This document shows, piece by piece, positions 3,011 through 40,789 of a stretch of 64,000 bases of DNA. The position numbers and the translations under genes were made by a program. The stretch is from assembly GCA_019057475.1 (NCBI GenBank), contig DXJO01000008.1, forward strand, positions 73,943 through 137,942, read 5' to 3'. Within the stretch, counting starts at the first letter, position 1; every line of letters begins with the position of its first letter. The stretch is from Candidatus Thorarchaeota archaeon. GTDB taxonomy: Archaea; Asgardarchaeota; Thorarchaeia; Thorarchaeales; Thorarchaeaceae. The notes under the pieces were generated by a model. That model was not told the DNA's origin. It saw only the letters and a program-made list of their open reading frames with translations, and ran no database searches.

Positions 3011-6000
3011 ATGGACCGATTGCCAATCCAAAGGTGTATGCAGATGAGAATCAGTAGAAATTCCGTGGGTTTTGCATTCCTGATGACATTGTTACTTGTG
3101 TCAGGCTTTCTTTCGCAAATGGGGACTGCATCGCCTAATCTGAGTACTGTAGGAGCGATGCCGCACGCAATAGATAATATGCTGAGCCCTGACGCATCGG
3201 GTCCTGAAGCAGTGTATGTCACATCCGATCTCCCCTCATCGACAACCGGCACAGGATTGTTATTGCATGTAGTCGAATATGCTAATGGAACCTTTGTCGA
3301 ACGCAACACAAGAGCAAACGAATCAACCACTTTCTATCCTCAGAGGTTCGATATTCCACAGGGGTGGCACACCACTCAGATCACAGCAATAAGCTCTAAG
3401 ATGTATCATCTCAGAGATTGGGTACAGAACGGAAATTTCTCAGCCATCACCGGCTGGTCGTACAACGAGGATCCCAGTCCCACTGGTGTTCTAACAGAGG
3501 ATTACGATGGCATCAATGACTGGATTACGATTGTTCGTGAATCTGGTGGAAAAGTGCAATACGACTATTGGGGCTCGTGGAATCAAACAGTGCAAGTCAT
3601 CGAGGGTGGAGCTGCCTCTGCAACGCTGAATGTCACTTACAAAATCGATACCACAACAGGCACCAACGGGCAAACTGCAGAACCGTATCTCTTCGTCAAT
3701 GGTTCAATGTATGAACTACCATCCGGAGGAAGAAGATTCAGCAGCAATCAAGACTGGACTACCTATTCCGTTGAGCTACCGCTTTCTGAATTCACCTTTC
3801 CAGGCGACCTAGAAGTGGCGTTGGGCATTCGAGGCTGGAATGGAACTCAGTTCCAGACAAAGGGTACCTTAACTTGCGACAATGTCACGTTGACTCTACG
3901 GACCTCAAGATTCGTCGAGGCAGTTGACCTGAGAACACGCGACAAAGATGACCCCCCAAACACGGTGCAGTTCACAACGGGAGCAGGTGGAAAAGGCTAT
4001 GCCACCCTCTCAGGCAACTGGACAAATTATGTAGAGTTAGAGTTTCTAGCCAATGAAACGGGTACTGAGTTCAGTCTGGACCTCTTCATGCATTTGATGC
4101 GAAATAACAATCTTGATACCAATACATACACTGTCGCAAACGGCACTGATGCAACTTGGGACTGTGCTTTTACCGCGCGGGAGATGGCTTACCCATTTAC
4201 ATCCCACTACTTCAATGTGTCAATTCCTCATGATTGGACTCTTGAATCGGTGTATGATGCATACAATGACCTTCAGCTGTCTGGCACAACCTACTACAAT
4301 GCCACATACTACGGGGCCGAATCAATACTCGTATGCGATGTCTATGGTACTGGTGTAAGCGGAACGCCCCACTACGGCACCTGGACCTTTTCGTCGACCG
4401 CCCCCAACTACGGCAAGGCCCTCTCGTCATGGGGTGCACCGGACGGATACTGGACTGAAACGATCAACTTCTATCCGGGCTCAGATCTCCGGGTCAATGT
4501 CACATTCAGCGATGGAATAGAATCCCCCCCGACTTCTCCGGGTAACGGAACGCTGAATCTCTACAATGTGGAAACACAACTTGTATACACCGAGTCTGGA
4601 GGTGCTCTGGACGTTTCTGGCTTACACATTTACCAGAATGGAACAGGCATATCAAACATCACAATTCAACCCTCGTGGCTTGCTGGATCAATCACAGCAA
4701 TCGCTTCATGGGGCAACGGAACGTCGGTGGGAGAAATCAGGAAGCAGTTCTTCATCTATCACAGAACTGAACTAGAGATAGAGGCAGCAGTCTATTACGC
4801 GTTTCGAGGGGACACAATCTCCGTAAGAGTCAAGTATGTTGACTCTGAAACAGGACTTGGTATTCCTGCAGCCTCGCTCTACTATAACTGGACCTATGGT
4901 TCAGACGCCATGGGGTATGCTGGTAACGGATGGTACGCAGGATATGTGGATACCTCAATGGCCATGATAGGAGATTATCCAGTCACGGTGAACGCATCCA
5001 AAGAGTATAACGACTTTGCACTGACAACTGGCATCACAATCAAAATCCAAGAGAGAACCACGCTCTTCTCACCTAGGAGCCTGCAAACCCCAACCACTGA
5101 CTATGAGATCCCATGGGGGAACTCGAAGGTCATCTACTTGGCCTACGAGGATACCATTCAAATGAATCCTGTGGCCCTGAGTGCCAATCCAGGCAGTCCT
5201 GGGAGTCCAGATGTGACTGACACGTACACTTCCAACAATGTCTACGCGACGGTGACCAGTGTAGGCAATGAAATCTCTCTTACAGTTGAAACCAATGTCA
5301 CCCCTTACGGTTTCCTGACCGCTGACCTCACTTCGATGTCCTACAAGGCTGAGGGTAAGTTTAGCGTCGCAGTTAGCACCGGATCTGTTTATGCCTATAA
5401 CTTCAGCAGTGGCTCCTGGGTGATAATCATTGATTCATACCAACCAGTTGTCGACACCACTCTCTCATGGAAGACCCTCAAGCCAAGTGATTTCATCTCT
5501 ACAGGCGGTATTGTGCGGGCTCGGGTCAATGCAACCCATTCTGCATCCTTTAGCTTCGATCTCGACCTCTTCGATTTTGTGGCCAACCGCCCTATCGATG
5601 ACACTGAACCAAGTGTTTTGATTAAATCAGATTGGCCAGCACAGTCTGTCGTTGGCACTCAAGTAGGACCCGTCTACAACGCATCTCTGAATATCTGGCA
5701 GGTCACACTGAACACGAGGGATGTTGTACCTGGTGAATACACAGTACTCATTGAGGCCTCAGCCACTGGACACCAGAGCAAATCCCTAGAGTTGACAGTT
5801 GCTCTAAAAGCCCATCAGAGCCGGGTGTCGGTGTATCCACTCTCAGAAACTCCTTGGAGCTGGAAGACATGGATTAACGTTTCAATTACGGACACAGACA
5901 ACTCGTCAATGGTGCTTTCGGAGAACAACATCTCATTGATTCAAGTGGAATCCGCTTATGGTATTCAGTTTTTCACCTCATCCAATTGGACGTACAGCGA

Positions 6001-8566
6001 CTCAAGTGGATATGCTGAAGTTGCTCTCCATCTTGACACAAGCGCATGGGACATCGGTTCTCACTCTGTGACAGTCACAGTGACTACATCAGGCACAGGT
6101 CTATCCAAGTTCTTTAATGATCCATCATTACAGCATGTGGATATTGGAATCAGGCGGGTCAGGACAGGACTCTACGTTGACAGCTCCATAATTTCGGTGA
6201 ACTGGAGCGATCAGGTGAATCTTGCAGCTTGTTATGATAACCTAGATATAGGTGAACTGGTGCTTGGCGCAACCGTAAAGGCATCATTGAGTGGCCTATC
6301 ATTTGATCTTACTTCGAATGGTACAGCGTACACAGCTCACATTGACACTGCACCGCTGGATGTTGGAACCTACATCATTACCATAACGGCCAACAAGACG
6401 AACTTCGAAACCAAAATCATTCAGGTCACTCTTGTTGTGTTTGTTCTTCAGACTGTGATGGAGAGTGCAGATGGATTGTATTCATTCTCTGTCGTAAGTG
6501 GAGAACATGTCGACCTGTTAGTATACTATTACGAGCTGGCATTTGGACTTGGCGTAGGCGATGCCACTGTGTCATACGTCTGGGACCTCGGCAGCGGGCT
6601 GCTTGTCACAAATGGTACAGCTGGATACTACACGGCAACAATCAATGCAACGGCTTATGTGAACATATACACGATCTCCGTGAGAGCCAACAAAACGAAC
6701 TACGCCACAACCAGCATCTACTTCAGTCTCGATGTGGGCCTTGTTGAAACCGAGCTATCATCGGTCGGTGAGCCTACTCTCCGAGTCGTCTTTGGTGAAA
6801 TGGCATTCATGGTGGTCAACTACACCAGCAAGAATTTGGAAGAACCTGTCACAGGTGCCTCCTTGCAGTTTAGGTTTGGTGACACAAACTACACAGGCAT
6901 CCTAACTGAGTCCCAACCAGGAATCTACAACGCCACGATTGACTCCTCTCAACTGCACGCCGGGACGTTCAGTTTCTATATTGTGGCGACGAAGGCCGGA
7001 TACAAGGCTGGTACTCTCGCTCGCCTCTTGGAAGTAGCCCAGATTGACACAATTCTTACCTCTACACATCCACCGCTGACTGTTGTCTATGAGTCAATTG
7101 CCACATTCTTCTTCAACTACACAGATGTATATTACGGGCTTCCAATAGAGAATGCTACACTTGAGTACACATGGTTGGGTGGGACGGGCATCCTCGATGA
7201 GATGGGAAACGGAATCTACAGCACTGAGTTTGACAGCGTTCTCGTGGGTTTCGGACTGCACAATGTCCATGTGAGCGCTTCCAAGAGCAACTATGTGTTC
7301 AGAACTGCATCGTCGACGCTCGAGGTACGCGTCATAGCCGCCGAGGTCATTGTTGATGAGTACTACACGATTCCTATTGGCGACGCCTTGACAATCCATG
7401 TTATCTACAATGATACATCCTACAACAGATTGATCAATGATGCCACAGCTCTGGCAGTATGGAGCTACGGAAACGTAGACCTCATTCCCACGGGAGATGG
7501 CCAATACTCATTCACAATACCTGAAACCCTTGCAATGGACACCTTCTACGTGACATTCATCCTCAGCAAAGCTAACCACGAAAGTGTCAGTGTGCGCGTA
7601 ACAATTATCGTGCGAGAGATCGCCACTCATCTCTCAACACTCAGTGGCGACAACTTCGTGGGTGCCACAATCGGTGAGTTAGTCCAGATAACCATGGTCT
7701 ACACTGATACCGACCACAACATACCCATATCAGGCGCCATACTCTCTGTAACACAAGAGAGTGGAATTATTGATGAGAGCGATTGGACAGTTGTTGAGGG
7801 TCTTGTCCCTGGCCAGTATGTCATATCATTCGTCGTACCGGTTGACGAGCAGTTCAGCATACTGGTAAGTGCTCAGAACGGGGAGAACTACAATGCACAG
7901 GAGATTACTATTGCAATAGTCGCTACTCCAGTTACAGTGGATCCGCTGACGTCGATGATGACCTTATTCGGGAGTCTCGGTGTGATATTCTTCCTTGTTT
8001 GCGCTCTTCTCTATGTCAAGATCTTCAGCGTTCCGATAGTGATTCGTCGTCTGAATAGAATGATCAAGGTAATGTCCAAGGGCGGGATACCCAAGGTCCC
8101 GGAGGCCCCAGGTAGAGATGAGATAATCCAAGATATTATCAACACAGGCCTGGCCCCGGTCAACATATACAAGTCACTTGATGAGATTCCCAAGGAAACT
8201 ATCGAGCTCATGATACCTGAAACTGAAGCGCTGCTTCAGGAACTGGCGGAGATAACAGGTCTCACTGAGGATGACATAGCAGCACTCCATTCTGACCTTC
8301 TGAGAATGAAGCCTAGTGAGAGGCCCGGGTTCCTAATGGAGGTCATTCGTCAGGAGAAAGCCAGAAGGTCAAAAATCCTCGCTGAGAAAAAGGAGGAGTC
8401 AAAGAGAAGAGCAATCACCAAGGCCGAGCTTGAGGATGTGCGGGCTAGGCTTGAGGCCATGGGCTTCGATGAAGGTCAGCTTGAACTGATTATGGAAAAT
8501 GCGAAGAATCTAACCAAGGCTGAGGTAGATGCTCTGTTGGATAGCATGGGGGACTCCACTAGGTAG
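3011..8566 (+). CDS. Giant secreted/surface protein: N-terminal signal peptide, very many N-x-S/T sequons, C-terminal TM helix and cytoplasmic coiled-coil tail
   Basis: It is 1851 aa. MQMRISRNSVGFAFLMTLLLVSGFLSQMGTASP reads as a signal peptide; alternative starts are 3038 and 3044. N-x-S/T sequons run throughout (NGTF, NVTY, NGSM, NWTN, NETG, NVSI, NATY ...). Repeated Thr/Ser/Val-rich beta-like segments. TM helix LTSMMTLFGSLGVIFFLVCALLYVKIF, then about 170 aa of charged, Glu/Lys/Arg-rich tail. No PGF-CTERM. Confidence 0.7.
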   Translation: MDRLPIQRCMQMRISRNSVGFAFLMTLLLVSGFLSQMGTASPNLSTVGAMPHAIDNMLSPDASGPEAVYVTSDLPSSTTGTGLLLHVVEYANGTFVERNTRANESTTFYPQRFDIPQGWHTTQITAISSKMYHLRDWVQNGNFSAITGWSYNEDPSPTGVLTEDYDGINDWITIVRESGGKVQYDYWGSWNQTVQVIEGGAASATLNVTYKIDTTTGTNGQTAEPYLFVNGSMYELPSGGRRFSSNQDWTTYSVELPLSEFTFPGDLEVALGIRGWNGTQFQTKGTLTCDNVTLTLRTSRFVEAVDLRTRDKDDPPNTVQFTTGAGGKGYATLSGNWTNYVELEFLANETGTEFSLDLFMHLMRNNNLDTNTYTVANGTDATWDCAFTAREMAYPFTSHYFNVSIPHDWTLESVYDAYNDLQLSGTTYYNATYYGAESILVCDVYGTGVSGTPHYGTWTFSSTAPNYGKALSSWGAPDGYWTETINFYPGSDLRVNVTFSDGIESPPTSPGNGTLNLYNVETQLVYTESGGALDVSGLHIYQNGTGISNITIQPSWLAGSITAIASWGNGTSVGEIRKQFFIYHRTELEIEAAVYYAFRGDTISVRVKYVDSETGLGIPAASLYYNWTYGSDAMGYAGNGWYAGYVDTSMAMIGDYPVTVNASKEYNDFALTTGITIKIQERTTLFSPRSLQTPTTDYEIPWGNSKVIYLAYEDTIQMNPVALSANPGSPGSPDVTDTYTSNNVYATVTSVGNEISLTVETNVTPYGFLTADLTSMSYKAEGKFSVAVSTGSVYAYNFSSGSWVIIIDSYQPVVDTTLSWKTLKPSDFISTGGIVRARVNATHSASFSFDLDLFDFVANRPIDDTEPSVLIKSDWPAQSVVGTQVGPVYNASLNIWQVTLNTRDVVPGEYTVLIEASATGHQSKSLELTVALKAHQSRVSVYPLSETPWSWKTWINVSITDTDNSSMVLSENNISLIQVESAYGIQFFTSSNWTYSDSSGYAEVALHLDTSAWDIGSHSVTVTVTTSGTGLSKFFNDPSLQHVDIGIRRVRTGLYVDSSIISVNWSDQVNLAACYDNLDIGELVLGATVKASLSGLSFDLTSNGTAYTAHIDTAPLDVGTYIITITANKTNFETKIIQVTLVVFVLQTVMESADGLYSFSVVSGEHVDLLVYYYELAFGLGVGDATVSYVWDLGSGLLVTNGTAGYYTATINATAYVNIYTISVRANKTNYATTSIYFSLDVGLVETELSSVGEPTLRVVFGEMAFMVVNYTSKNLEEPVTGASLQFRFGDTNYTGILTESQPGIYNATIDSSQLHAGTFSFYIVATKAGYKAGTLARLLEVAQIDTILTSTHPPLTVVYESIATFFFNYTDVYYGLPIENATLEYTWLGGTGILDEMGNGIYSTEFDSVLVGFGLHNVHVSASKSNYVFRTASSTLEVRVIAAEVIVDEYYTIPIGDALTIHVIYNDTSYNRLINDATALAVWSYGNVDLIPTGDGQYSFTIPETLAMDTFYVTFILSKANHESVSVRVTIIVREIATHLSTLSGDNFVGATIGELVQITMVYTDTDHNIPISGAILSVTQESGIIDESDWTVVEGLVPGQYVISFVVPVDEQFSILVSAQNGENYNAQEITIAIVATPVTVDPLTSMMTLFGSLGVIFFLVCALLYVKIFSVPIVIRRLNRMIKVMSKGGIPKVPEAPGRDEIIQDIINTGLAPVNIYKSLDEIPKETIELMIPETEALLQELAEITGLTEDDIAALHSDLLRMKPSERPGFLMEVIRQEKARRSKILAEKKEESKRRAITKAELEDVRARLEAMGFDEGQLELIMENAKNLTKAEVDALLDSMGDSTR

Positions 8567-10247
8567 AACCACATTCTCCGGAGTAATACTGAAGGCTTGA
8601 CGTCGACCAGAATGCCCCCAACTTGTGACACATGAGTTCTTTGATGGCCTTGGCGGATTGCAACCCAACAATTGGCTACATTGACGACCTACTATTGACC
8701 TATTCTCTCGACATAGCTCTCTACGAACTTGGCTCTCTCGGCTCTGCATTTGTGGCTGAGCTGCGCAAATGGGCCAGCTGCCAGTACACTCTGGACCTCA
8801 ATGAGGGGGTCTCAGATAAGAGAATCAAGTCTGTCACTCTCTTACTGGGCTCAGCACTCAACTCCACAATCCATATCACAAGCTCCCTGAATCTCAACTC
8901 CACAGTCATCTTCTCGAACAATGCTCGTTTATCCTATGACAATCAAAGCTTCAAGTACGATGCTTCAGGAACCGTTGCCCGAAACTTGTACAATCTTGGA
9001 CATCAACGTCCTTGACTGATGTTTGGTTCCTGATTCATTGAGGTCTGCTCTGCAGATCCTACTGGATCTGCGACAAGTCTTGCGTCCTCTCCACAGGCGT
9101 TTTCTGTCTCCATCCAACTGGCGGCGACCGAAGTTCATGCAGGCCCTAGCAATCAGCATTGAACATCCACACTAATCAATCCTGAGCAGTATGTTATAAC
9201 CACCTACAAAATGTCTAAGAATGTACAAGTTCTTGGCAGCTGTTGCATACCCTCCGCTTTGGATTTGGTGAAGATGTAAGACTCAGCCGGTGGTTTCGCG
9301 TTTGGATTGACACAGACATGGCAGCCGTATACATTGACCTACTCGACAGTCATGGTGGTAAGATCACCTTTTCCTACCTGACAGACTACCTCATAGCAGA
9401 CATTGACGGTTGGTACTCCTGTGGTGCCCGTATGTATTCCGCCGAGGTCAAACTCACGCCACCTGTAGTTGATGTTGCGGTCAGCACGAATACTGCTGTG
9501 GTGGTTCTGTACGACTGGAACTTCTTTTGACCAGACCGCCTTACTCCTTCGTAGTTGTAGCCCCCTTGCTAGGAATATGGCCTTACGTGTCTGCTTCTCC
9601 GCAGTTGTAGCTAATTACCAGTACCCCAAAGCAGATTGATAGGACTGTATCTCTCTCCACTCGCATTAGCTGCTGAGAGCATGAAAAATCGTAGCCTCTG
9701 TGAATACAGTGAGGACGGCACCTGCGTACTTCGCAGTGATGAAACAGTGTATTGCCCATTCTCAGGTCAACTTGGAGCATGGGGTTTCGCAGGGCTCTTT
9801 GTCTACCAGTTCTACGAGATGAGGGAACAGGTACTGCACTTGGCTAACGGTCGGGAAGTGATAGAGCTCTCTCTAGAACGGGCATTTGAAGTGCCAAGCC
9901 GCAGCTACGTAGAGTCTGGGTTAGGTCCCATCACCTTCACTGACTTCCTGCGAGGAGTGGAGGAAACAGTAACATCATTTGTAGCAAACCTTTCGTGGTT
10001 GCCTCCAGTTCCTGACGAGTGACTTGTTTCGTCGAACGGTAGCAAGTTCCTGCTGGTTATGTTGACACCGTCGATTATGACAGTTTCTGTGGTAGTCCTG
10101 TCGAGAGCGCCGATAAGTTGTCTTTCCCGACCCGGGTGGTCCCATTATCCAGTAGATTGCCAGCATACTTAATACAGTCGTGTGAATAGCCGCGTCGACA
10201 AATTGGTTCAAAAATGGTGTATGATAGTGCAGGGGGATAACTCAAGA

Positions 10248-10307
10248 GACCGGAGTGGGCGCCGCAAGTCCGGTCAGGAATTAGTCATTACGAACTACGA
10301 CCCTCAG
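10248..10307 (+). pseudogene. Dam C-terminal remnant immediately upstream of Dam paralog 2
   Basis: The translation DRSGRRKSGQELVITNYDPQ mirrors the Dam1 C-terminus RNRGGKRKYGNELVITNYDHE and the Dam2 C-terminus KMGQELIISNY. It lies in frame upstream of the real Dam2 start. Confidence 0.4.
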
Positions 10308-10373
10308 ATAACTGTGGAAGAAACCACGACCCACACAGGGGGTGACGCCATTCATTCTGAAATCACCACAAGA

Positions 10374-11174
10374 ATGATGGACCGCTCTATCAAGTCTCCA
10401 TTCCGGTTTCCTGGCAGCAAGGCTCAGGCAATCAAGTACATTCGACCCCACTGGGAGAGCAATCCACACGCCGAGTATCGAGAACCATTCCTTGGTGGTG
10501 GTGCAGTGTTTTTCTCGAAGCTAAGGGTTCCATCTATCTGGCTGAACGACATTGACGAAGAACTTGTCACTACATACAAAACAATACAGGACGCTGAATC
10601 ATGCTCCCTTCTGATGGAACGAGTGAGTCAGGAAGAAGCAACAAAAGAACGCCACACGGAGATGAAGCACTGGAAACCGAAGACCGCCCTGGACATTGCT
10701 CATCGCTATTTCTACCTCAATCGTACATCGTACAGTGGTATAATGAAGAAACCCGCGTGGGGGTATCACCCGAAGAAGAGTGTCCCCCCGGAGCGGTGGG
10801 GACCACGAATCCTGCAAGCACATGAGAAGCTACAAGGTGCCAAAATCACATCTCAGGACTTCGAGTCCATAATCGAGGCACCCGCACAAAATAATGGCGT
10901 CTTCATGTTCATCGATCCTCCGTACTATGAGGCTGACCAGAAACGGGCGTATAAGCACTCATTCACTCAGGCTGACCATGTGCGGCTCGCTGCCATTCTC
11001 AAGGGGACCGACCTGCCCTTCTGCCTGACCTATGATAATTGCGAGCCAGTTAGAAACCTCTATGACTGGGCCACAATAACTCCGGTTTCTTGGAGGTATC
11101 ACACAGCAAATTCTCGAAAGGCTAGCAGGAAGATGGGTCAAGAACTTATCATCAGCAACTACAAACTCGAATGA
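10374..11174 (+). CDS. Dam-family N6-adenine DNA methyltransferase, paralog 2
   Basis: FPGSKAQAIKYI..EYREPFLGGGAVFF, YFYLNRTSYSG and FIDPPYY (DPPY). The likely ATG is at 10374. The listed ORF start at 10182 includes the Dam-remnant leader. Confidence 0.8.
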   Translation: MMDRSIKSPFRFPGSKAQAIKYIRPHWESNPHAEYREPFLGGGAVFFSKLRVPSIWLNDIDEELVTTYKTIQDAESCSLLMERVSQEEATKERHTEMKHWKPKTALDIAHRYFYLNRTSYSGIMKKPAWGYHPKKSVPPERWGPRILQAHEKLQGAKITSQDFESIIEAPAQNNGVFMFIDPPYYEADQKRAYKHSFTQADHVRLAAILKGTDLPFCLTYDNCEPVRNLYDWATITPVSWRYHTANSRKASRKMGQELIISNYKLE

Positions 11175-11391
11175 AGCCCTGAATCTTGGCCTGTCTTGAG
11201 CTTGGCCATATGTTAAGTTCGCAAGAACGATGTTGGTCCTCTGTTAAGACCGAGCCTTCGTTTCTTCTCATTTTTCGAGCACTATGATTTCTGGAGGTCC
11301 TAGAATGGTGTTTGGGTCTAGTCTGGGCGGTTTCTAAGGGAGACGCCATTACTACAACTGCTAATATGCAAAATGACAATCGTTCTGTTGA

Positions 11392-11730
11392 TTGTCGATG
11401 ACGGTACGATTAGATTCCATCTCTAGGGCTTTCAGCGAAGGAAGGACGGTATGCAATAGACTTGGCTGCGTCATTCTGTATACGGGTGACAGTTGCGCAC
11501 TGTGTGATGTCGCTATGGAGGTTCTGCAAGAGGTCGTTACCGAGTTCGGTCTTCCCCTCGACATTGTTACTGAGGTGGATATCGACACAGCCAATGATTG
11601 CGACCTTTCCGGTATTGTCGCTCTTCCCACGATGAGCATCTGTGGAAAAGTCATTCCCGGATTGCCGGATGTCGATGATGTTAGAGGAGCTCTCATGAAT
11701 GCAATTCTCGGGGGTTGCCTCTTTAGGTAG
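11392..11730 (+). CDS. Small thioredoxin/glutaredoxin-like redox protein (CxxC)
   Basis: VILYTGDSCALCDVAMEVL carries a CxxC in a thioredoxin-fold context. It was preferred over the overlapping antisense ORF 11361..11696. Confidence 0.4.
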   Translation: MSMTVRLDSISRAFSEGRTVCNRLGCVILYTGDSCALCDVAMEVLQEVVTEFGLPLDIVTEVDIDTANDCDLSGIVALPTMSICGKVIPGLPDVDDVRGALMNAILGGCLFR

Positions 11731-11755
11731 GCATGCTCTGACTGCTCGCTTCTTT

Positions 11756-13015
11756 CTACACCCGTTTGAGGATAACTAAGTGCTCTGTAGCCATTCTGCT
11801 GTCCGCATAGCCCGATGCCGGGTTAACTTCTGATTTGAACATGGATCGCGAAACTATCGGGTCTACGTAAGTGACAAGATGCTTCCAGCCCATTTCCGTG
11901 AGATGTTCAACCAAAATCTCATCAATGGGGATTGATCTTGTCCTAATCTTGGCAGGCCCAACGAATATGCACATGTAGTCATTGACTCTCTCTCCAAGAG
12001 TCGCGAATGCATTTATTGTTCCATGGAAGTACCTGTCATACAGCTGGACAAGGTGGTCCTCAACTATCTCCTTTCTGTAAGCTTGATACTTCTCAGAGTG
12101 AATGTGAATCTCGTCAACAGAGTTGTACGGGAGTTCTTTCTTGCTCAACGATCTCACGTATTCCTCATTATGCCCCAGCCAGAAGAGTTCGAGCTTCGTC
12201 GACCTGATGTACTCCTGAGCTTGCAGGTAGGGCGGAGATGTAATGAGAATATCCACATCTCTGTCTAGCTCGGTGTTGAGGGAATCAATCCCTGATCTCA
12301 GCTTGTGCTTCACCGGTTGAGGATTGAGATTGCTGTGTTCCTTCATCTTGTTGAGGAGTTTCTCAATCTGCTTTTCCAGCATGCTGTAGAACTCGGTTTC
12401 CCAATCTGTCCCCAGCAGCCGCTCTACCTTCTTCTTCGAGTGTCTGGATTTGTACAGCTTGTGCACCTTCTCATCACTGTATGAGAAGTATCTGGTTGCC
12501 TTCAGAAGAGGAATCGAGAGCATTTTCTTCGTCTTGCCCTTTGTTGCATGAACTAGTCCCCATGCCTTTGAGATAGTTGGGAGAAACTCTTCCGGGAACC
12601 AATACGTCAGGTTTGACCAGTCAGGAATGAATTCATGGTCAGAATTGCGCACTCTGGCAACTAGTTCTTGAACGTTGATTTTTGGGGCTTTCATGACTGC
12701 AGTGTCATGGAATAGGTTCATTATGGGATTCAGGTCCCAGAGCTCGTAGTCATGACCGTATACCCTTGACACAACGCCAACTGTGCCATAACCCGCAAAG
12801 GGATCGAACACGACTGACCCTGGTTCCGCGTATTTCTTCAGAGTGTAGGCGATAACCTGAGGGATGAACTTGGCTGGGTACTTGTAGATGGAGAAGGTTC
12901 CATAGGTCGTCTTGGGAATCTCTGGGACCGAGTTCCTGAACACCACGTCGACTCTCGGAGCAGCATCCTGATTGGATTGCGTGGTTCCGTTGGATGGTGT
13001 TCTGCCTTTGCTCAT
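11756..13015 (-). CDS. DNA methyltransferase, N4/N6 (N-4/N-6 methylase domain), alpha-like motif order
   Basis: Motif I VFDPFAGYGTVG lies near the N-terminus. Motif IV ITSPPYLQAQEY lies about 195 aa downstream, leaving room for a TRD in between. Confidence 0.75.
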   Translation of the reverse strand: MSKGRTPSNGTTQSNQDAAPRVDVVFRNSVPEIPKTTYGTFSIYKYPAKFIPQVIAYTLKKYAEPGSVVFDPFAGYGTVGVVSRVYGHDYELWDLNPIMNLFHDTAVMKAPKINVQELVARVRNSDHEFIPDWSNLTYWFPEEFLPTISKAWGLVHATKGKTKKMLSIPLLKATRYFSYSDEKVHKLYKSRHSKKKVERLLGTDWETEFYSMLEKQIEKLLNKMKEHSNLNPQPVKHKLRSGIDSLNTELDRDVDILITSPPYLQAQEYIRSTKLELFWLGHNEEYVRSLSKKELPYNSVDEIHIHSEKYQAYRKEIVEDHLVQLYDRYFHGTINAFATLGERVNDYMCIFVGPAKIRTRSIPIDEILVEHLTEMGWKHLVTYVDPIVSRSMFKSEVNPASGYADSRMATEHLVILKRV

Positions 13016-13044
13016 TGTTGTACACTCTTGAGAGTTCTTCAGAT

Positions 13045-13755
13045 TTAGGACTGTTTACTGTTCCTGTCTGTATGAAGGAACGCTCTTCTGCGTTTTCCAC
13101 AGACCGTAATGGCTCCCATCTTCCTCAAGCAATATGTCATCTTCTGCACCAGCCATCTCGGTTTGTCAGTGGCCTTGGCAAGGTCTGCATTAGTAAACGG
13201 TCTGGTCAGTGAATCTGGAATGAACGCGAGGAACTCCTCAGGTTTCTCGAAGAGATACTGGTCAGTAACCTCGACCAGCCTGCGGTCGACGATACTCCAC
13301 CCTTTGCGCCTCCAGCTCCCCTTTCCGTCATTGCGCCTGATTTCCTCTTCGCGGATGAGCAGAATTTCGAGTGAGAAGTTCTGATGAGCGACGAGTTCTG
13401 GGAAACTCACGAGTTCCTCAAACAGGTTCTCAAGCGACTTCCTCTTGGGTGAACGCCGTTTCCCGAGTTCGACGCTGCCGTCGAGGCTCTCCCGGACTAT
13501 CCATTTCTCGTGGGCGAGCGGATGAACGAGCCGCACCTGATGACTCCCAATCAGGGTCATTAGTTTCTGCTTGATAGCAGAGAAGTTGCTGGTCTGAATC
13601 TCGATAAGCAAGTCGCCACGCACTATGTCAATTACAAAACCATCAACTGGTACTTCCAAGAGGTCTCCTGAGTTGCTGTACCATTGCTTCAATGCAGCAT
13701 GCAAAGAGCTCTCAGCCAGTACTCCAATGCCTTGAGAGCCTCCCTCAGAAGCCAT
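13045..13755 (-). CDS. Hypothetical PD-(D/E)xK nuclease-like protein; candidate restriction endonuclease partner of the adjacent MTase
   Basis: VDGFVIDIVRGDLLIEIQT fits a D...D...E-x-Q/K layout. The gene is co-oriented and 29 nt upstream of the MTase. Start taken at MASEGG (13755); the listed ORF start at 13890 would overlap the IscU gene. Confidence 0.35.
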   Translation of the reverse strand: MASEGGSQGIGVLAESSLHAALKQWYSNSGDLLEVPVDGFVIDIVRGDLLIEIQTSNFSAIKQKLMTLIGSHQVRLVHPLAHEKWIVRESLDGSVELGKRRSPKRKSLENLFEELVSFPELVAHQNFSLEILLIREEEIRRNDGKGSWRRKGWSIVDRRLVEVTDQYLFEKPEEFLAFIPDSLTRPFTNADLAKATDKPRWLVQKMTYCLRKMGAITVCGKRRRAFLHTDRNSKQS

Positions 13756-13837
13756 GTGTTTGACTGATGCTTCACTCCTTTTGTCAGTTCTGATAAAAAG
13801 ATGGCTTCGCGCCATAAACCGAACTCTGCTCCGGGTA

Positions 13838-14617
13838 TTACCCGATAATGACAACGGCATCGATGAATAGCTCGTATTCCTCGTCTTCATCGAGGTTCTT
13901 GATCAGTGCACGTTCTACCTCAAAGTCACCTCTGATCTCAAGGAGTTGTGACTGGTACAGAATTTTGAGTCCCACGTTGCCGAGGAGCATGTTCAGCTCG
14001 TCCGGCATCTTGATGTCCTTGCCACATGTCAGCAGAATTACTCGGTCGGTATGATCTGTGAGCTTAATCGCGGCTTTGATTGATGCATCTCCAGTGTAAA
14101 TTACCAGAGTTCGCTGATCGTCAAAAACAGTCGGATCGCCTATTGTTCGGTACAACCCGTTATTCTCAAATTCGGTCTTGCACACGATGTGTTCTGTTTG
14201 GACGATATCATCACACTCGGGCTCATCCACCTCGCCACTCTCCCTGCGGCGGTAGCTGCTGATTGCCTCGTGCAAAGCTTCCGCTGCCAAATTCGAACAG
14301 TGCATCTTGATGGGCGGCAAACCGTCCAATTCTCCGGCTACATCCTCGCGCTTGACTTTCATTGCCTCATCCAAGGTCATTCCTATGACCATCTCCGTGG
14401 TCATGCTGCTTGTGGCAATAGCGGAGCCGCAACCGAAGGTTCGGAACTTGGCATCCACAATCTTGTCATCTTTCACCTTGATGAAGACCTCCATAATGTC
14501 TCCACACGTTGGATTGCCAACAGTTCCAGAAGCCACGTCATCTCCCTCGAGAGTACCAACGTTTCTTGGATTTCGGAAGTGGTCTAGAACCTTTTCAGAG
14601 TACTTTGTTGACTTCAT
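13838..14617 (-). CDS. iscU: IscU/NifU-type Fe-S scaffold fused to an uncharacterised ~130-aa C-terminal domain
   Basis: The N-terminus has the three scaffold Cys contexts (GNPTCGDIMEV, FRTFGCGSAIATSS, MHCSNLAAEAL). Residues 125-259 have no recognised motif. Confidence 0.8.
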   Translation of the reverse strand: MKSTKYSEKVLDHFRNPRNVGTLEGDDVASGTVGNPTCGDIMEVFIKVKDDKIVDAKFRTFGCGSAIATSSMTTEMVIGMTLDEAMKVKREDVAGELDGLPPIKMHCSNLAAEALHEAISSYRRRESGEVDEPECDDIVQTEHIVCKTEFENNGLYRTIGDPTVFDDQRTLVIYTGDASIKAAIKLTDHTDRVILLTCGKDIKMPDELNMLLGNVGLKILYQSQLLEIRGDFEVERALIKNLDEDEEYELFIDAVVIIG

Positions 14618-14627
14618 TAGTCATCAC

Positions 14628-15806
14628 CTATTTTCTGGCCTTGTAGATTGGCGATAATTCCCTCAGGCGATTTACCACTTTGGGAACCACCTCGAGAGCC
14701 CGGTCGATATCGCTACCTTCATTGAAGCGTCCAACCGTGAACTGCAGTGAGCCGTGTGCTTCCTCGTGCAGCAAGCCGGTTGCTATTAATGTATGCGACG
14801 GCTCAAGGGTCTTTGAGCTGCAAGCTGACCCAGTTGATACTGATATTCCCTCATCTTTGAAGGAGAGCAGTATCGACTCTCCCTCAATACCATCGAATCT
14901 AAAATGAGCGTTACTGGCAAGCCGTTCTTTTTGATGGCCGTTGAGGTAGCTGTCTGGAATCTCTTCCAAGACCTGTTTAATCATTCTATCGCGCCAGCCT
15001 ATGAACCGCTTAACCTCTCTCTTCATTTCTTTCCTCATGATTCGCGCAGCAGCCTGCATGCCGATAATGGCTGGCATGTTCTCAGTGCCCGAGCGAAGCC
15101 CTCTCTCCTGTCCACCGCCCTGAATCACAGGGTTGGGGCGGGCTCCCTTCCTGATGTACAGAATGCCAAGGCCCTTTGGTCCATAGATATCGTTGGACGA
15201 CAGTGACATCAAGTCGATGTTGTCACGCTTGACATCCAATTCAACCAGCCCCTCGGCAGCCACTGCGTCGGTGTGAAACTTAATTCCTCTCTCCCTAGCG
15301 AGATTTCCAATTTCTGCTACTGGCTGGATTGTACCTATCTCATTGCTTGCATAGCCTATGGAGATCAGTATCGTTTGGTCTGTTAGTCTTCTCTCGAGCT
15401 TCTTAATGCTCACTCTGCCATACCTATCCACGGGTACCCGCGTAACATTGAAGCCCTGCATCTGGAGGTACTTGGCGATGTTGCGGATAGAGATGTGTTC
15501 AACCTCGGAGATGATGACATGGTTTCCCTTTCTCTTGTTCTTCAGCATGTATCCTAACAGGGCGAAATTGTTGGATTCAGTCGCACCGGATGTAAAGACA
15601 ATCTCATCGTTATCAGCATTGATGAATTTCGCAATCTCCTTTCTGCTCTCCTCAAGTGCATCTGTAGCAACGTCTCCCACCTTGTGTAGCGCTGAGGGAT
15701 TCCCGAACTTCTCAGTGAAGAAGGGTATCATCTCATCTATGACTCTAGGATCGACTGGTTTCGATGACTGGTAGTCCAGATAGATTTCAGGGCGAGAGGT
15801 ATTCAT
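14628..15806 (-). CDS. iscS: IscS/NifS-like class V aminotransferase-fold protein lacking the PLP-binding lysine
   Basis: Class-V fold throughout. The active-site Cys loop is present (STGSACSS). The canonical SGHKIYGPKG reads SSNDIYGPKG, so H-K is N-D here. Confidence 0.8.
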   Translation of the reverse strand: MNTSRPEIYLDYQSSKPVDPRVIDEMIPFFTEKFGNPSALHKVGDVATDALEESRKEIAKFINADNDEIVFTSGATESNNFALLGYMLKNKRKGNHVIISEVEHISIRNIAKYLQMQGFNVTRVPVDRYGRVSIKKLERRLTDQTILISIGYASNEIGTIQPVAEIGNLARERGIKFHTDAVAAEGLVELDVKRDNIDLMSLSSNDIYGPKGLGILYIRKGARPNPVIQGGGQERGLRSGTENMPAIIGMQAAARIMRKEMKREVKRFIGWRDRMIKQVLEEIPDSYLNGHQKERLASNAHFRFDGIEGESILLSFKDEGISVSTGSACSSKTLEPSHTLIATGLLHEEAHGSLQFTVGRFNEGSDIDRALEVVPKVVNRLRELSPIYKARK

Positions 15807-15820
15807 CTTGGTACGTCACC

Positions 15821-16063
15821 TTACTTCAGTCTGCGAATCAGGAAGCGCTGCACTCCATCATCAAACTTCTCATAGGAGATGAGTTCATGACCTGTGCGCT
15901 TACAGAACCTCTTGATATCCGACTCTGCGCCTGGATCATCAGCGAGCAGCTCTAGAATCTCTCCAACTTCGACAGAGCCAATCGATTTCCGTGCCTGCAG
16001 GAGCGGCATAGGACAAAAGAGTCCCACACAATCCAATGTCTTAGTTGGTTCAGAATCATTCAT
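15821..16063 (-). CDS. tusA: TusA-like sulfurtransferase
   Basis: 80 aa, with the CPxP motif in LDCVGLFCPMPLLQARK. Confidence 0.75.
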   Translation of the reverse strand: MNDSEPTKTLDCVGLFCPMPLLQARKSIGSVEVGEILELLADDPGAESDIKRFCKRTGHELISYEKFDDGVQRFLIRRLK

Positions 16064-16183
16064 ATTGGCAACACCTAACCATTGTTAAGTTTGGGCTAGG
16101 TTCGGTTGAGAACCTTATAACTTTTAGCATAGGTCTGGCGAAAATCAAAAGCGTTTTCAAGAGGGTGCAACTCCGCGGATGCC

Positions 16184-20407: not shown

Positions 20408-21265
20408 TCAGGAATTCGCCAGTTCATCCATTGCTCCGGTTCGATACCCTCTAGCGTCGATAGCAACATAGGTGAATCCAACGGAGATTGCCAACTCGTT
20501 TAGCTCGTCGAGTTTGTTGGTGTCGAAGAGTTTGTCACGCTCGTCAGAACCTACTTCTATTCGCACAAGATCACCGTGGAATCGAGCTCGGATTGTACGG
20601 ACTTCGAATATTCGTCTGACTGCTTGTTCAATCGTATCTACCATGGTGACATATTTCTTTGTGATCTGCACTCCGTAAGGAAATCTGGTTGCTAAGCATG
20701 CCATGGAGGGTCTGTCTGCAACAGATAGTCCGTTCTCTCTTGCGTACTTGCGAATCTCATCCTTCGTCATGCCTGCATCCAAAAAGGGTGATGTCACTCC
20801 CATCTCTCTGAGAGCACGTTCGCCAGGTCTGTGGCCTTTCAGATCACTTGCGCTTGTGCCTTCAACGACCATGTCGAAACCTCGTTTGCTAGCGTATTCA
20901 ATCCAGACCTTAGCCAGCTTCTTCTTGCAGAGGTAACATCGGTCGCGGGGGTTCTTTGTGAACTCATCATCGTCCAGATGATCCACATGGATTATCTCAG
21001 ACCCAATTTTCAGCTCGTCTGCGACTTTCTTTGCATTTACAAGTTCAGACTGGGGTGACAGAATACTATCGATGGTGAGTAACACAACTCTGTCTGCATG
21101 CTTCTTAGCGAGGAGTGCAAGGACAGAGCTATCAACACCGCCGCTAAACGCAACTAATACTCGTTGTCCATTCAGAAGGCGCGCGATTTTGCTAAACTTA
21201 TCCTTGGAGTGTTCATTCATCGAAGTCTTGCCTGCTTTCGAGCTGATGGTCTTAAGGATTGGCAA
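20408..21265 (-). CDS. PP-loop ATP pyrophosphatase (TIGR00268/LarE-like sulfur transferase family)
   Basis: SGGVDSS PP-loop, RDRCYLCK, and ARFHGDLVRIEV, which is typical of LarE-like enzymes. Confidence 0.7.
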   Translation of the reverse strand: MPILKTISSKAGKTSMNEHSKDKFSKIARLLNGQRVLVAFSGGVDSSVLALLAKKHADRVVLLTIDSILSPQSELVNAKKVADELKIGSEIIHVDHLDDDEFTKNPRDRCYLCKKKLAKVWIEYASKRGFDMVVEGTSASDLKGHRPGERALREMGVTSPFLDAGMTKDEIRKYARENGLSVADRPSMACLATRFPYGVQITKKYVTMVDTIEQAVRRIFEVRTIRARFHGDLVRIEVGSDERDKLFDTNKLDELNELAISVGFTYVAIDARGYRTGAMDELANS

Positions 21266-30952: not shown

Positions 30953-31588
30953 TTACTGTGCCAGTTCTCCGATGAACTGCTTGGCAACTGCGACCGCACT
31001 GGTGGCATCCTTGCCAAACGCGTCAGCACCCGTGTAGTCAACGGTTTCTTGGTTGGTGTTTCCTCCGCCTATCATAACCTTGACATCGTTCCTGATTCCA
31101 GCTGTTCTAAGGGCCTCGATTGTTATCTTCATTGAGTCATGAGCCACAGTAATGAGTCCACTGAGCGCGAGAATCCGTGCACCGGTTTCATTCAGTTTCT
31201 CAATGAACTTCTCAGAAGGCACGTTTTCACCAAGATCATGGACCTCGAAACCGTTGGACTTCAAAAAGGCAATAACCAGGTTCTTGCCAACATCATGCAC
31301 ATCGCCCTTTACAGTTCCAATCACGATTTTCCCTATTGCGCTCCCTTTCTGTTTCTCAAGCAGCTTGGGTTCCACGAATGTCATGGCTTTCTTGAACAGC
31401 TCTGCTGACAGGATGAGCTCTACAAGGAAATACTCGTTATTGGCAAACCTTGCTCCAACGATATCCATTCCTTGCCTTAGCCAATCTAGTATTTGTGCTG
31501 GGTCAGTGCCCGCGTCCAGCTGTTCCTTGACAATGTCTAGGAGCTTCTCCTCTTCTAGATCGCCCACGGCATCAATGAGGTTTTTCAT
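30953..31588 (-). CDS. Corrinoid (B12)-binding protein of methyltransferase systems (MtaC/MtbC-like)
   Basis: A helical B12-binding_2 N-terminus, then a Rossmann B12 domain with DxHxxG (GDVHDVGKNLV), SGL and GGG motifs. Confidence 0.8.
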   Translation of the reverse strand: MKNLIDAVGDLEEEKLLDIVKEQLDAGTDPAQILDWLRQGMDIVGARFANNEYFLVELILSAELFKKAMTFVEPKLLEKQKGSAIGKIVIGTVKGDVHDVGKNLVIAFLKSNGFEVHDLGENVPSEKFIEKLNETGARILALSGLITVAHDSMKITIEALRTAGIRNDVKVMIGGGNTNQETVDYTGADAFGKDATSAVAVAKQFIGELAQ

Positions 31589-31647
31589 CGTGATTCACTC
31601 ACAGGTTTCCCTCGAATCGAGCCCCCGCATAAATATGTCCCGAAAAG

Positions 31648-33261
31648 TCAGTCGTGGACTGATTCAAGTATGGTTGCTTGAGCGAAAATATCAGCGAAGT
31701 TGTCGTGAGTAGCAAGCTCGTAGTAGTTTATCTTCCTTCTCAATTGCTCAATCACCCCGCGGCTTCTCCTGGATACCAGTAACCTCTTTGCTCCTTCTCC
31801 TGCGGCGTTACCCACCGCGATAATCCTCTCAAGGTCGACCGGGGGAAAGAGGCTAATCCGCAGCGCGCTAGACGGGTCGATGTAGTTCCCGAATGCTCCC
31901 GCGAGATAAATCGCCTTGATGTCCTCAGTACGGACATTCGCAACCTGCATCAAAATTTGGGTTCCTGCTAGAATGGCTCCCTTTGCTAGTTGAACCTGTC
32001 GAACATCTCTCTGCGTAAACATGATTCTGCTCTTAGATGCGTGTTCTCCAGCACCTACGACGAGATAGGCTAGCCCCGCTTTGGTGTCATCCACTACCCT
32101 TGCTGATGCTTTCATCCTCCCACCAGCATCAACTAGTCCGTTTCTCAGCAGTTCTGCTACGGTATCCACAATGGCAGAGCCGCACAGTCCTCTAGGTGCA
32201 CCGCCGCCAATCACTGAGATTTCAGGGGCATCGTCAATCTCTCGAATTGTTAAGTGCTCAATCGCACCATCTTGGCCTCTCATGCCGTGACTGATTGTCG
32301 CTCCTTCGAAAGCGGACCCAGCAGCTGCGGAGCAACAGAACAATTCGCCTCTCTTAGAAAGCACGATTTCACCATTCGTTCCTATATCGATGCCGAGGAC
32401 GACATCATCAGCAAGGTCTAATCTTTGGGACAGAATGAAAGCAAGTGTATCGCTTCCGACAAAACCCGCTACGTTCGGGGCGAAGTATACCTCTGCGTCC
32501 GGAGTGGATTTGAGGCCGATTTTTCTCCCATTGCTTGTGAACGCATCCCGCATCTGCGGCTCATAGGGGGCTAGGCCCAATGATGAGGTATCTAGACCCA
32601 AAGCGAGATGATGCATTGCCGTGTTGCCTACCACGACCAATCTCGATAGCTTGTTTGAGGGCACTCCAGACTCATTGCAGAGCATAGTACTTAGTTCGTC
32701 AATCTTATCCAGTACTCTCTGCTTAAGGAGGGTTCTGCCTTTCTCATCTTTCATAGCGTACGCTATTCGTGACATCACATCTTCGCCGAATATGACCTGA
32801 GGGTTGAGGTCCGCAGAGTTCGCAATCTGGTTGCCTTTGCTCAGGTCAAGCAGATATGCAACTATTGTTGTGGTTCCTAAGTCGACCGCGATGCCAAATT
32901 CTCCTTCATGTCCTTCATCCAGAGCGAAATCGCTTGTTGAAGAGACCCCACTTGCTAGTATTTTAGCAGCAGTGGATGTGTGAGGAATGACTGCCCTTGT
33001 GTCAAAACTGATTCGATGCTGACAGGCAAGTCGCACACCCACGTCGATGTCATGTTCTCCAATGAGTTGGGTTTCCACACGTGTGGGGGCAGTTGCAGGG
33101 TTGAGTATGATACGACATTTCCCGCACGTTCCTCGGCCTCCGCACTCCGAGGAAACTTGGAGTCCTACCATCCGTATCGCTTCGAGAATTGTAGTCTGCT
33201 CGCCTATGGCTATGCGAAGTCCCGATGGTTCAAGGATAAGGACGTGCTCTCGCAAGTGCAT
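31648..33261 (-). CDS. RACo-type reductive activator of corrinoid protein (2Fe-2S ferredoxin + ASKHA ATPase)
   Basis: An N-terminal plant-type ferredoxin (CGGRGTCGKCR...C) is followed by an ASKHA-fold domain. 537 aa. Confidence 0.75.
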   Translation of the reverse strand: MHLREHVLILEPSGLRIAIGEQTTILEAIRMVGLQVSSECGGRGTCGKCRIILNPATAPTRVETQLIGEHDIDVGVRLACQHRISFDTRAVIPHTSTAAKILASGVSSTSDFALDEGHEGEFGIAVDLGTTTIVAYLLDLSKGNQIANSADLNPQVIFGEDVMSRIAYAMKDEKGRTLLKQRVLDKIDELSTMLCNESGVPSNKLSRLVVVGNTAMHHLALGLDTSSLGLAPYEPQMRDAFTSNGRKIGLKSTPDAEVYFAPNVAGFVGSDTLAFILSQRLDLADDVVLGIDIGTNGEIVLSKRGELFCCSAAAGSAFEGATISHGMRGQDGAIEHLTIREIDDAPEISVIGGGAPRGLCGSAIVDTVAELLRNGLVDAGGRMKASARVVDDTKAGLAYLVVGAGEHASKSRIMFTQRDVRQVQLAKGAILAGTQILMQVANVRTEDIKAIYLAGAFGNYIDPSSALRISLFPPVDLERIIAVGNAAGEGAKRLLVSRRSRGVIEQLRRKINYYELATHDNFADIFAQATILESVHD

Positions 33262-33266
33262 GACTC

Positions 33267-34217
33267 CTAAGCGATTCGATACCGTGGATGCTGGCGGTCC
33301 ACGCGCGTTCTTGTTTCAAGCAGCACTCCTGATAGGGCAACGTCAATCATCGCCACTGATGGGAACACAATGGGTGCATGTTTGATAGGTCCATAGAGCA
33401 CAAAGTCGGCTCCAAGTGTTACTGGCATTAAACTCGATCCTACAAGAGCTGGTTTCTTTGCATCTTTCCCAAATTTCGGAACCAAGCCCCTCCAAGTGTT
33501 CACAGCATTATGTGCACCGCATCCCACCGGCACGCCGAACTTGTCCTTTATCATATGCTGCGCTTTGCATGCAAGGCCAAGTGTCAACAGATCGATGACT
33601 CCCGTATCGATGATAACATTCTCAATTCCTGCCTTGGTTGTTTTGTCTAGGAGCATTTCCGCGAGATCCAACCGCTTCGTAGCTGATGCCATCGCGGCGT
33701 TAGAGAAGGTCAGTCCCACTGCATGCTTCACGCCAAGTTCATGGAACGATTCCAACGCTTCCATGCTTGTGTCTGGTGTAATGGAATTCAGCATCACTCT
33801 GTCTAGGAATCCACCTTCGCGAGCCGCTTGGACCCCTGCAAGATTTACTTCTTCAGAACCGGACCCGTCAACCAGCAGAGGCATATCTGTGACGTCTACA
33901 AGGTGCAGCAGATGCTTCTCAATCGCTTTGGGGGACTCTGCGACGACATCGAGCATGCTTGGCAGTCCAGTAGCACTGGACGCGTCCACTAACGCATTCA
34001 GCAGCGCTTCTGCACTGGGCACATCAATAGTGCCCTCTTTCGCATTCTTGACAAGTTTATCTCCCGAGTGGAAGATGGAGCCTATGAGAACGGTGGGGTT
34101 GATGCCAGGCTTTCCTCCTATCCTCATGTTGTCAATCTCAAGAACTCTTTGCTCTGCTGTGTATTCAAACATCTGATCAGCACCCAAGGCTGCACGCTGG
34201 CTCATAGCTGCCTTCAA
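33267..34217 (-). CDS. MtrH-family methyl-corrinoid:tetrahydropterin methyltransferase
   Basis: Aligns by eye along its length with MtrH, for example GADFVLYGPIKHAPIVFPSVAMIDV against MtrH GGDFVLYGPIENAEMAFPACAMADI. Confidence 0.8.
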   Translation of the reverse strand: MKAAMSQRAALGADQMFEYTAEQRVLEIDNMRIGGKPGINPTVLIGSIFHSGDKLVKNAKEGTIDVPSAEALLNALVDASSATGLPSMLDVVAESPKAIEKHLLHLVDVTDMPLLVDGSGSEEVNLAGVQAAREGGFLDRVMLNSITPDTSMEALESFHELGVKHAVGLTFSNAAMASATKRLDLAEMLLDKTTKAGIENVIIDTGVIDLLTLGLACKAQHMIKDKFGVPVGCGAHNAVNTWRGLVPKFGKDAKKPALVGSSLMPVTLGADFVLYGPIKHAPIVFPSVAMIDVALSGVLLETRTRVDRQHPRYRIA

Positions 34218-40690: not shown

Positions 40691-40789
40691 TCCCAAAGAT
40701 TGGCCTCCTTCTAAGGTTACTACTTAATAGGAAATCAGATTCCTGAATTTGAATGCGGGAGGTTATTGATAGTGTCAACAAAGGATAAG

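Follow-up and report, generated by a model that had tools for sequence, protein, structure and literature searches.

The tusA-iscS-iscU locus of a Thorarchaeota contig

The stretch of DNA analysed here, referred to as the window, comprises 64,000 nucleotides of contig DXJO01000008.1 from a Candidatus Thorarchaeota archaeon (assembly GCA_019057475.1, positions 73,943 to 137,942). Its minus strand carries a gene for a homolog of type-I cysteine desulfurases (misS-like; 14628..15806) that lacks the lysine forming the Schiff base with pyridoxal 5'-phosphate (PLP) in the canonical enzymes. This lysine-less iscS gene is an intact open reading frame (ORF) of 392 codons with an ATG start, and the encoded 392-aa protein has the class-V aminotransferase fold of type-I (IscS/NifS-like) proteins (Pfam Aminotran_5, 1.6e-74). 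It is preceded, at a distance of 14 nt, by tusA (15821..16063, minus strand) and followed after 10 nt by a gene for a 259-aa IscU fusion protein (13838..14617, minus strand). The minus-strand run of tusA, iscS and an IscU fusion described in the first-pass annotation is thereby borne out, and the short gaps suggest that the three genes are expressed as one transcript.

The tusA gene encodes an 80-aa sulfur carrier with the CPxP motif's cysteine at Cys17. The protein exceeds the gathering score of Pfam TusA (PF01206, 2.5e-24), scores 61.5 with the NCBIfam TusA equivalog, which is under the cut-off of 78, and matches TusA of Escherichia coli (1dcj, 3lvj) at ~3e-14, its GLFCPMP pairing with GLRCPEP. 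The region 5' of tusA (16064..16183, minus strand) contains a TATA-like TTATAA at 16115-16120 and a Shine-Dalgarno-like AGGTG at 16072-16076, both identified by eye, as was a GGTGA ~10 nt before the iscS start. The IscU scaffold domain corresponds to residues 1-128 of the fusion protein (14234..14617, minus strand; NifU_N, 1.1e-48) and has all of its cluster ligands intact (C38, D40, C63, H106, and C107). It matches IscU of Methanothrix (7c8m, 6.7e-50) and of Archaeoglobus fulgidus (4eb5_C, 8.5e-46), the latter also being the top match in Foldseek. No other genes of the ISC system (hscBA, iscA, fdx) were detected within 10 kb of iscS-iscU, and the module has tusA on its upstream side, a restriction-modification-like island on its downstream side, and no other neighbors.

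Substitutions in the cofactor pocket

In the translated sequence, residues 203-212 (15171..15200, minus strand) read SSNDIYGPKG, with N205 and D206 in place of the canonical His205 and Lys206, while canonical enzymes have S(G/S)HKIYGPKG at this site. The alignments with E. coli IscS (FSGHKIYGPKG), with the IscS structure 9wer (ftahkmygpkg), and with 55 homologs of the lysine type from genomes (S(S/G/A)HK) are all free of gaps. Therefore, N205 and D206 occupy the positions of His205 and Lys206, and the lysine is not restored by any insertion or deletion. The replacement of GHK by SND had been proposed from the letters alone, together with a pairwise alignment with the IscS proteins of E. coli and A. 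fulgidus as the check; this alignment revealed neither a misjudged indel nor a lysine at the PLP position. The Cys loop STGSACSS, likewise predicted to be retained, is found at residues 324-331 (14814..14837, minus strand), and its Cys329 aligns with Cys328 of E. coli and Cys321 of A. fulgidus.

According to established IscS/NifS enzymology, the pocket residues form the Schiff base, contact the phosphate and O3' groups of the cofactor, and bind the substrate carboxylate. When these residues are mapped onto the numbering of E. coli IscS, four of them are altered, namely K206 to Asp, H205 to Asn, Q183 to Ala, and R354 to Gln, whereas T76, H104, N155, D180, S203, T241, and the loop cysteine (C329) are kept. 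The corresponding residues of A. fulgidus IscS2 are D199, N198, A176, and L347, so that the two proteins differ only at the last of these positions (355 in the window protein), where the window IscS has Gln and A. fulgidus IscS2 has Leu. The window IscS falls under the trusted cut-off of every NCBIfam NifS/IscS equivalog, including TIGR03402 (473.6 versus 530.75), NF010611 (407.8 versus 548), and TIGR02006 (404.7 versus 643.2). This agrees with the public name of its relatives, "cysteine desulfurase family protein". A second desulfurase was not detected in the window when the ORFs of at least 70 aa from all six frames were searched with the protein by phmmer, as only the protein itself was matched.

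Conservation and phylogeny of the lysine-less type

The substitutions and the retained pocket residues are invariant or nearly so, both among 121 close sequences (the window IscS and its 120 closest database clusters with 72-96% identity) and among 119 sequences of the A. fulgidus type. In the close set, A183, N205, and C329 occur in 121/121 sequences, Gln at position 355 in 118, and D206 in 120, the exception having Asn-Tyr. After realignment, the Asn-Asp (N-D) motif was found in all 119 natural relatives of A. fulgidus IscS2, which amounts to 238 of 239 natural database relatives. The nearest loci are those of two Candidatus Thorarchaeota metagenome-assembled genomes (MAGs) with 94% and 92% identity, and in comparison with these two Thorarchaeota loci the dN/dS of iscS is 0.07 and 0.13. 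Values for tusA (0.12-0.15) and for the IscU domain (0.08-0.16) are similarly low. The gene order of the window is the same as on the complete Thorarchaeota chromosome CP070761.1, and named relatives of the protein originate from Thor-, Hermod-, Hod-, Odin-, and Promethearchaeota. These matches identify the window as Asgard DNA. Both in Thorarchaeota and in other lineages of the Asgard group, the N-D type is the standard form of IscS. An Asgard (Thorarchaeota) host for a lysine-less IscS is new here.

An origin of the motif from sequencing or assembly error or from a decaying pseudogene has nothing in its favor beyond the oddness of the motif itself and has a practically negligible probability: the reading frame is intact, N-D recurs in 238 of 239 natural relatives, which come from many assemblies, the dN/dS of iscS is 0.07-0.13, and the operon has kept its structure. 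The conservation of N-D and these dN/dS values exclude chance, sequencing error, and gene decay.

Among 150 representatives of clusters at 50% identity, 16 are lysine-less. Most of these also lack Q183 and R354, and the cysteine is kept in all but one. Trees were calculated by neighbor joining (NJ) only, with 100 bootstraps and without the four signature columns. They contain one lysine-free clade that unites the window IscS with other Asgard sequences, a high-GC group, Archaeoglobi, Hadesarchaea, and Bathyarchaeia. The smallest clan including the window IscS and A. fulgidus IscS2 was free of lysine-type sequences in 96/100 bootstraps, and the smallest clan including all 29 N-D sequences in 92/100. 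The exact 32-member bipartition of the N-D clade has 24% support, because rogue lysine-less representatives variously join and leave this clade. Other lysine-less lineages, for example those with AVQ, ANQ, or HHV at positions 183/205/206, fall outside. One such independent case, from a Thermoplasmata MAG (L050), has His-Val at positions 205/206 and has kept Arg354, and neither tusA nor dsrE was found near it.

Linkage to TusA and DsrE sulfur carriers

The gene neighborhoods were compared for 147 loci, 59 of which derive from genomes, 80 from metagenomes, and 7 from named proteins, in addition to the window; these counts are not phylogenetically independent. The lysine type accounts for 116 loci and the N-D type for 28, of which 25 could be assessed. 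In 24 of these 25, tusA and/or dsrE is located adjacent to iscS on the same strand. Conversely, an ORF for TusA or DsrE was not detected anywhere in any of the 116 lysine-type loci, even at E<1; for 98 of these, the upstream DNA spans 1 kb or more. In 23 of the assessable N-D loci, tusA lies upstream on the same strand, and 16 have a dsrE-like gene between tusA and iscS. All 11 N-D clusters at 70% identity have a member with such a linkage, and the gene order varies. A Hadesarchaea locus has tusA-dsrE-iscS-iscU, and in A. fulgidus dsrE is located directly upstream of iscS2. In a separate lysine-less lineage (L111, L134), the carrier genes are found downstream of iscU. The carrier cysteine is kept in at least 90% of 26 tusA neighbors, and the carrier cysteines of the DsrE-like neighbors are conserved as well. 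Where downstream DNA is available, iscU directly follows iscS in almost all N-D loci, mostly with gaps of 0-35 nt.

The contrast between N-D loci (24/25) and lysine-type loci (0/116) is new here. A published description of a link between TusA/DsrE and lysine-less IscS was not found in the literature searched, which is no proof of its absence. Minimal archaeal systems have been described without accessory components (PMC13066941), whereas the N-D loci almost always include TusA and/or DsrE. These neighbors are a hint to the way in which sulfur for Fe-S clusters is acquired by such archaea.

Several loci of this set deserve separate mention. Modules consisting of tusA, dsrE, an N-D iscS, and an iscU with the C-terminal domain described below are present on high-GC contigs, namely L003 (GC 65.5%) as well as L069 and L072 (both GC 70%). 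L003 belongs to an Actinomycetota MAG, in which the neighboring genes encode IclR, acyl-CoA dehydrogenase, ETF, and xanthine-dehydrogenase proteins. These high-GC copies suggest a transfer between archaea and bacteria. In a locus labelled "Odinarchaeota" (L062, 7279-8119), iscU appears to be split over two frames, which indicates a frameshift or an assembly error, and in a locus labelled "Hermodarchaeota" (L063, 2463-4994) iscS and iscU are kept apart by a 529-aa gene of opposite orientation.

The C-terminal module of IscU

Residues 129-259 of the IscU fusion protein (13838..14233, minus strand) form a degenerate, acidic module that is similar to the NAD(P)H-binding subdomain of thioredoxin reductase (TrxR) and FNR. 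The resemblance extends over residues ~148-258 and is restricted to this subdomain of TrxR-like flavoenzymes (TrxR residues ~133-247). It is evident from a match to 2zbw (1.2e-5), from TIGR01292 (1.7e-9; 36.9 bits versus a cut-off of 343), and from Foldseek matches to TrxR/FNR structures (~1.6e-7 over ~125 columns). The pLDDT of the model is 66-88 across the domain; the model of the whole fusion is moderate (pLDDT 66) because the underlying alignment had 11 rows. In comparison with TrxR, neither a CxxC motif nor an FAD domain was found, and the glycine motif reads YTGDAS instead of GGGDSA. The module contains 27 Asp and Glu versus 12 Lys and Arg residues, including an invariant DEDEEYE stretch, and with a dN/dS of ~0.10 it is under purifying selection. 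Searches of the loci with a hidden Markov model (HMM) identified it in 13 loci, all within the subclade of the window gene, and a word-indexed search returned 10 fragments only, all Thorarchaeota-like. An IscU with a degenerate module of this kind, present in this subclade, is a further feature that is new here. A 112-aa ORF downstream of A. fulgidus iscU was considered as an unfused counterpart and rejected, as it has no similarity to the module (E = 2.6).

Relationship to A. fulgidus IscS2 and other systems

The best match of the window IscS in the PDB is A. fulgidus IscS2 (4eb5/4eb7/4hvk; E = 7.5e-135) with an identical SSNDIYGPKG, followed by 4r5f, an engineered D199K variant of the same protein. 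Identity is 53% to A. fulgidus IscS2, 50% to a lysine-type IscS from Methanobrevibacter, and 43% to E. coli IscS. Judged by its sequence, the window protein is of the known A. fulgidus IscS2 kind.

A. fulgidus IscS has Asp199, binds pyridoxamine 5'-phosphate (PMP), and is devoid of desulfurase activity, and its cysteine is a ligand of the [2Fe-2S] cluster on IscU (PMC8918507, PMC7585200). In 4eb5, this ligand is the cysteine equivalent to Cys329 of the window protein (PMC8918507, PMC13066941). The D199K variant still binds PMP (PMC8918507, PMC7585200), and the complex of A. fulgidus IscS with the IscU variant D35A was modelled with PLP instead of PMP (PMC8918507). How the cluster is formed without desulfurase activity has been stated as an open question, for which sulfide was proposed as the source (PMC8918507, PMC7585200). 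The work on A. fulgidus IscS is credited in PMC7585200 to Marinoni 2012, Yamanaka 2013, and Pagnier 2015. IscS1 of Methanosarcina acetivorans has also been reported to lack the essential lysine and was proposed to function in the manner of A. fulgidus IscS (PMC7585200).

A. fulgidus IscS2 (AF_0564; 4hvk, 4eb5, 4eb7; mutant 4r5f) and the window IscS have in common the motif, the exchange of Gln183 for Ala, the loss of Arg354, the Cys loop, and the pocket. In both organisms iscU is located directly downstream, and the dsrE-like gene directly upstream of iscS2 corresponds to the arrangement in most relatives of the window gene. The two loci differ in the upstream carrier, which is TusA without DsrE in the window and DsrE without TusA in A. 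fulgidus, in the ~130-aa C-terminal module, which is absent from the 153-aa IscU of A. fulgidus, and in the host, which is a sulfate-reducing euryarchaeon in the case of A. fulgidus and an Asgard archaeon here.

With canonical IscS, NifS, and NFS1 proteins, such as E. coli IscS (1p3w/3lvl), the window protein shares the fold, the length, the position of the Cys loop, and the pairing with an IscU-type scaffold, and the neighboring tusA recalls that TusA is a known partner of E. coli IscS (PMC2854127). In contrast to these enzymes, it lacks Lys206, His205, Gln183, and Arg354. Like the window module, the MIS system (MisS-MisU) has a core of two genes, iscS and iscU, and lacks chaperones, A-type carriers, and ferredoxin, and its archaeal and anaerobic distribution is similar to that of the lysine-less module (PMC12192291, PMC13066941). 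However, MIS has been described as containing a cysteine desulfurase and no extra components (PMC12192291, PMC13066941), the lack of such components being stated in a 2026 review, while the lysine-less module regularly includes TusA and/or DsrE. MisS is the cysteine desulfurase of this system, whereas the window IscS lacks the catalytic residues and is predicted to be inactive.

Proposed function and sulfur source

The window IscS is probably a non-catalytic partner of IscU as in 4eb5, providing Cys329 as a cluster ligand or as a residue for sulfur hand-over. Such a role, which the first-pass annotation had suggested by reference to A. fulgidus, is supported by the PDB match, by the lysine-free clan in 96/100 bootstraps, and by the literature on A. 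fulgidus IscS. Homology to the latter (53% identity, same substitutions) would imply that the window protein is devoid of desulfurase activity and that Cys329 serves as a ligand, and the common substitutions may further point to PMP instead of PLP as the bound cofactor.

The proposed mechanism starts from a protein that keeps the fold, an architecture of the dimer type, most of the PLP pocket, and the mobile loop with Cys329, and that has lost the four residues needed for PLP-dependent desulfuration of cysteine (Lys206, His205, Gln183, and Arg354, the last binding the substrate carboxylate). Most likely, an (IscS-IscU)2 complex is formed, in which Cys329 would act as the fourth ligand or as the hand-over point for a [2Fe-2S] cluster on Cys38, Cys63, and Cys107 of IscU. 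Sulfur would not be derived from cysteine but either directly from environmental sulfide or from a protein-bound persulfide. In the latter case, the putatively co-transcribed TusA would deliver sulfur via Cys17, and in most relatives the DsrE-like carrier would take part as well. A precedent for this contact is known from E. coli, in which TusA docks on IscS with its cysteine ~4 A from Cys328 (PMC2854127). A persulfide relay from TusA/DsrE to IscS and IscU, proposed from synteny, is put forward tentatively, at somewhat short of even probability. The synteny provides a testable lead on the source of sulfur for the A. fulgidus-type IscS-IscU pair (PMC8918507).

A wider proposal, which can be entertained but is on balance doubtful, is that the entire lysine-less clade represents a cysteine-independent route of ISC-type Fe-S cluster assembly, in which a persulfide passes from TusA/DsrE to the Cys loop of IscS and on to IscU and thus replaces PLP chemistry. 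If so, this route might be found in Asgard archaea, Archaeoglobi, Hadesarchaea, Bathyarchaeia, and some high-GC bacteria, and the relic of an NAD(P)H domain fused to IscU in the Asgard and actinobacterial proteins could conceivably function as a module for docking or for the delivery of electrons or iron.

Several observations weigh against a non-catalytic IscS supplied by TusA or DsrE. With only 53% identity to A. fulgidus IscS, the protein may have a residual or alternative activity. The N-D clade is monophyletic, so the linkage to tusA and dsrE could partly be inherited gene order; the varying gene orders and the divergence of the 11 clusters speak against inertia alone. A Bathyarchaeia N-D locus (L067) has neither carrier gene nearby, dsrE was not found anywhere in the window, and a loader for TusA (rhodanese, YeeE) was not seen in the window operon. 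In E. coli, the transfer of sulfur proceeds from IscS to TusA, and IscS cannot accommodate TusA and IscU at the same time (PMC2854127), so that a reversed flow would require sequential binding. Furthermore, in the alignment with E. coli IscS the TusA-contacting residue W45 is replaced by Asp, and E49 and D52 are replaced conservatively.

Alternatively, the lysine-less IscS could be an adaptor for sulfur trafficking outside of Fe-S cluster assembly, for example in tRNA thiolation, molybdenum cofactor synthesis, or LarE-type reactions, with IscU being a historical neighbor. TusA is best known for sulfur delivery to tRNA s2U and the molybdenum cofactor (PMC13066941), the linkage to tusA/dsrE is tight, and a gene for a LarE sulfur transferase is located 4.6 kb away in the window and 3.2 kb from iscS2 in A. 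fulgidus. This explanation is nevertheless unlikely in view of the iscU gene that directly follows in nearly all N-D loci with downstream DNA, the intact cluster ligands of an IscU under purifying selection, and the [2Fe-2S] cluster that bridges both proteins in the A. fulgidus complex (PMC8918507); in addition, LarE also adjoins IscS genes of the lysine type.

A still working desulfurase, with non-covalently bound PLP and the acid-base role of Lys206 taken over by another residue or by a partner protein, is very improbable. It would be compatible with the retention of most of the cofactor pocket (T76, H104, N155, D180, S203, and T241) and of the Cys loop, and with the PLP modelled in the A. 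fulgidus IscS-IscU D35A complex (PMC8918507). However, four catalytic or substrate-binding positions including the arginine for the substrate carboxylate have been lost jointly, wild-type A. fulgidus IscS has no desulfurase activity (PMC8918507, PMC7585200), and the window protein remains under every NCBIfam NifS/IscS equivalog cut-off. For a non-catalytic partner of IscU, as preferred here, a practical caution follows: Asgard "cysteine desulfurases" should not be annotated as active enzymes by default. This caution also bears on arguments that tie the ancestry of NFS1 and ISCU to Asgard archaea (PMC12872458).

Other features of the window

The LarE-type ATP-dependent sulfur transferase is encoded at 20408-21265 on the minus strand (TIGR00268, 254 bits versus a cut-off of 150), has a CxxC...C pattern, and is 43% identical to the product of the A. 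fulgidus gene located 3.2 kb upstream of dsrE-iscS2. LarE was considered as a partner specific to the lysine-less clade and rejected, as it adjoins six lysine-type IscS loci too. A ThiF/MoeB/UbaA-type E1-like adenylyltransferase (57594-58661, minus strand; under the equivalog cut-offs) and an MJ0307-type small thioredoxin-like protein (11392-11730, plus strand) are possible sulfur or redox players, neither of which is linked to the iscS operon.

The restriction-modification-like island directly downstream of iscU (10182-13890) is not part of the iscS module. It encodes a D12-class adenine methyltransferase (10182-11174), an N4/N6 methyltransferase (11756-13015), and a 281-aa protein (13045-13890), the gene of which overlaps the 3' end of iscU by 53 nt and has a homolog annotated as DUF8091 in locus L062. 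A second D12 methyltransferase is encoded at 1443-2258.

At 30953-34217 (minus strand), a B12-binding protein is encoded together with an MtrH-like methyltransferase and a RACo-type reductive activator that carries a 2Fe-2S domain; the three form a corrinoid methyltransferase set. An ORF of 1851 aa (3011-8566, plus strand) has no Pfam match at E<=1e-4. Finally, domains of a phosphotransferase (APH), a peptidase M23, and a class-III aminotransferase are joined in an ORF of 1029 aa (40766-43855, plus strand), which is located in the one part of the window with low GC (GC ~0.41, 40-44 kb).

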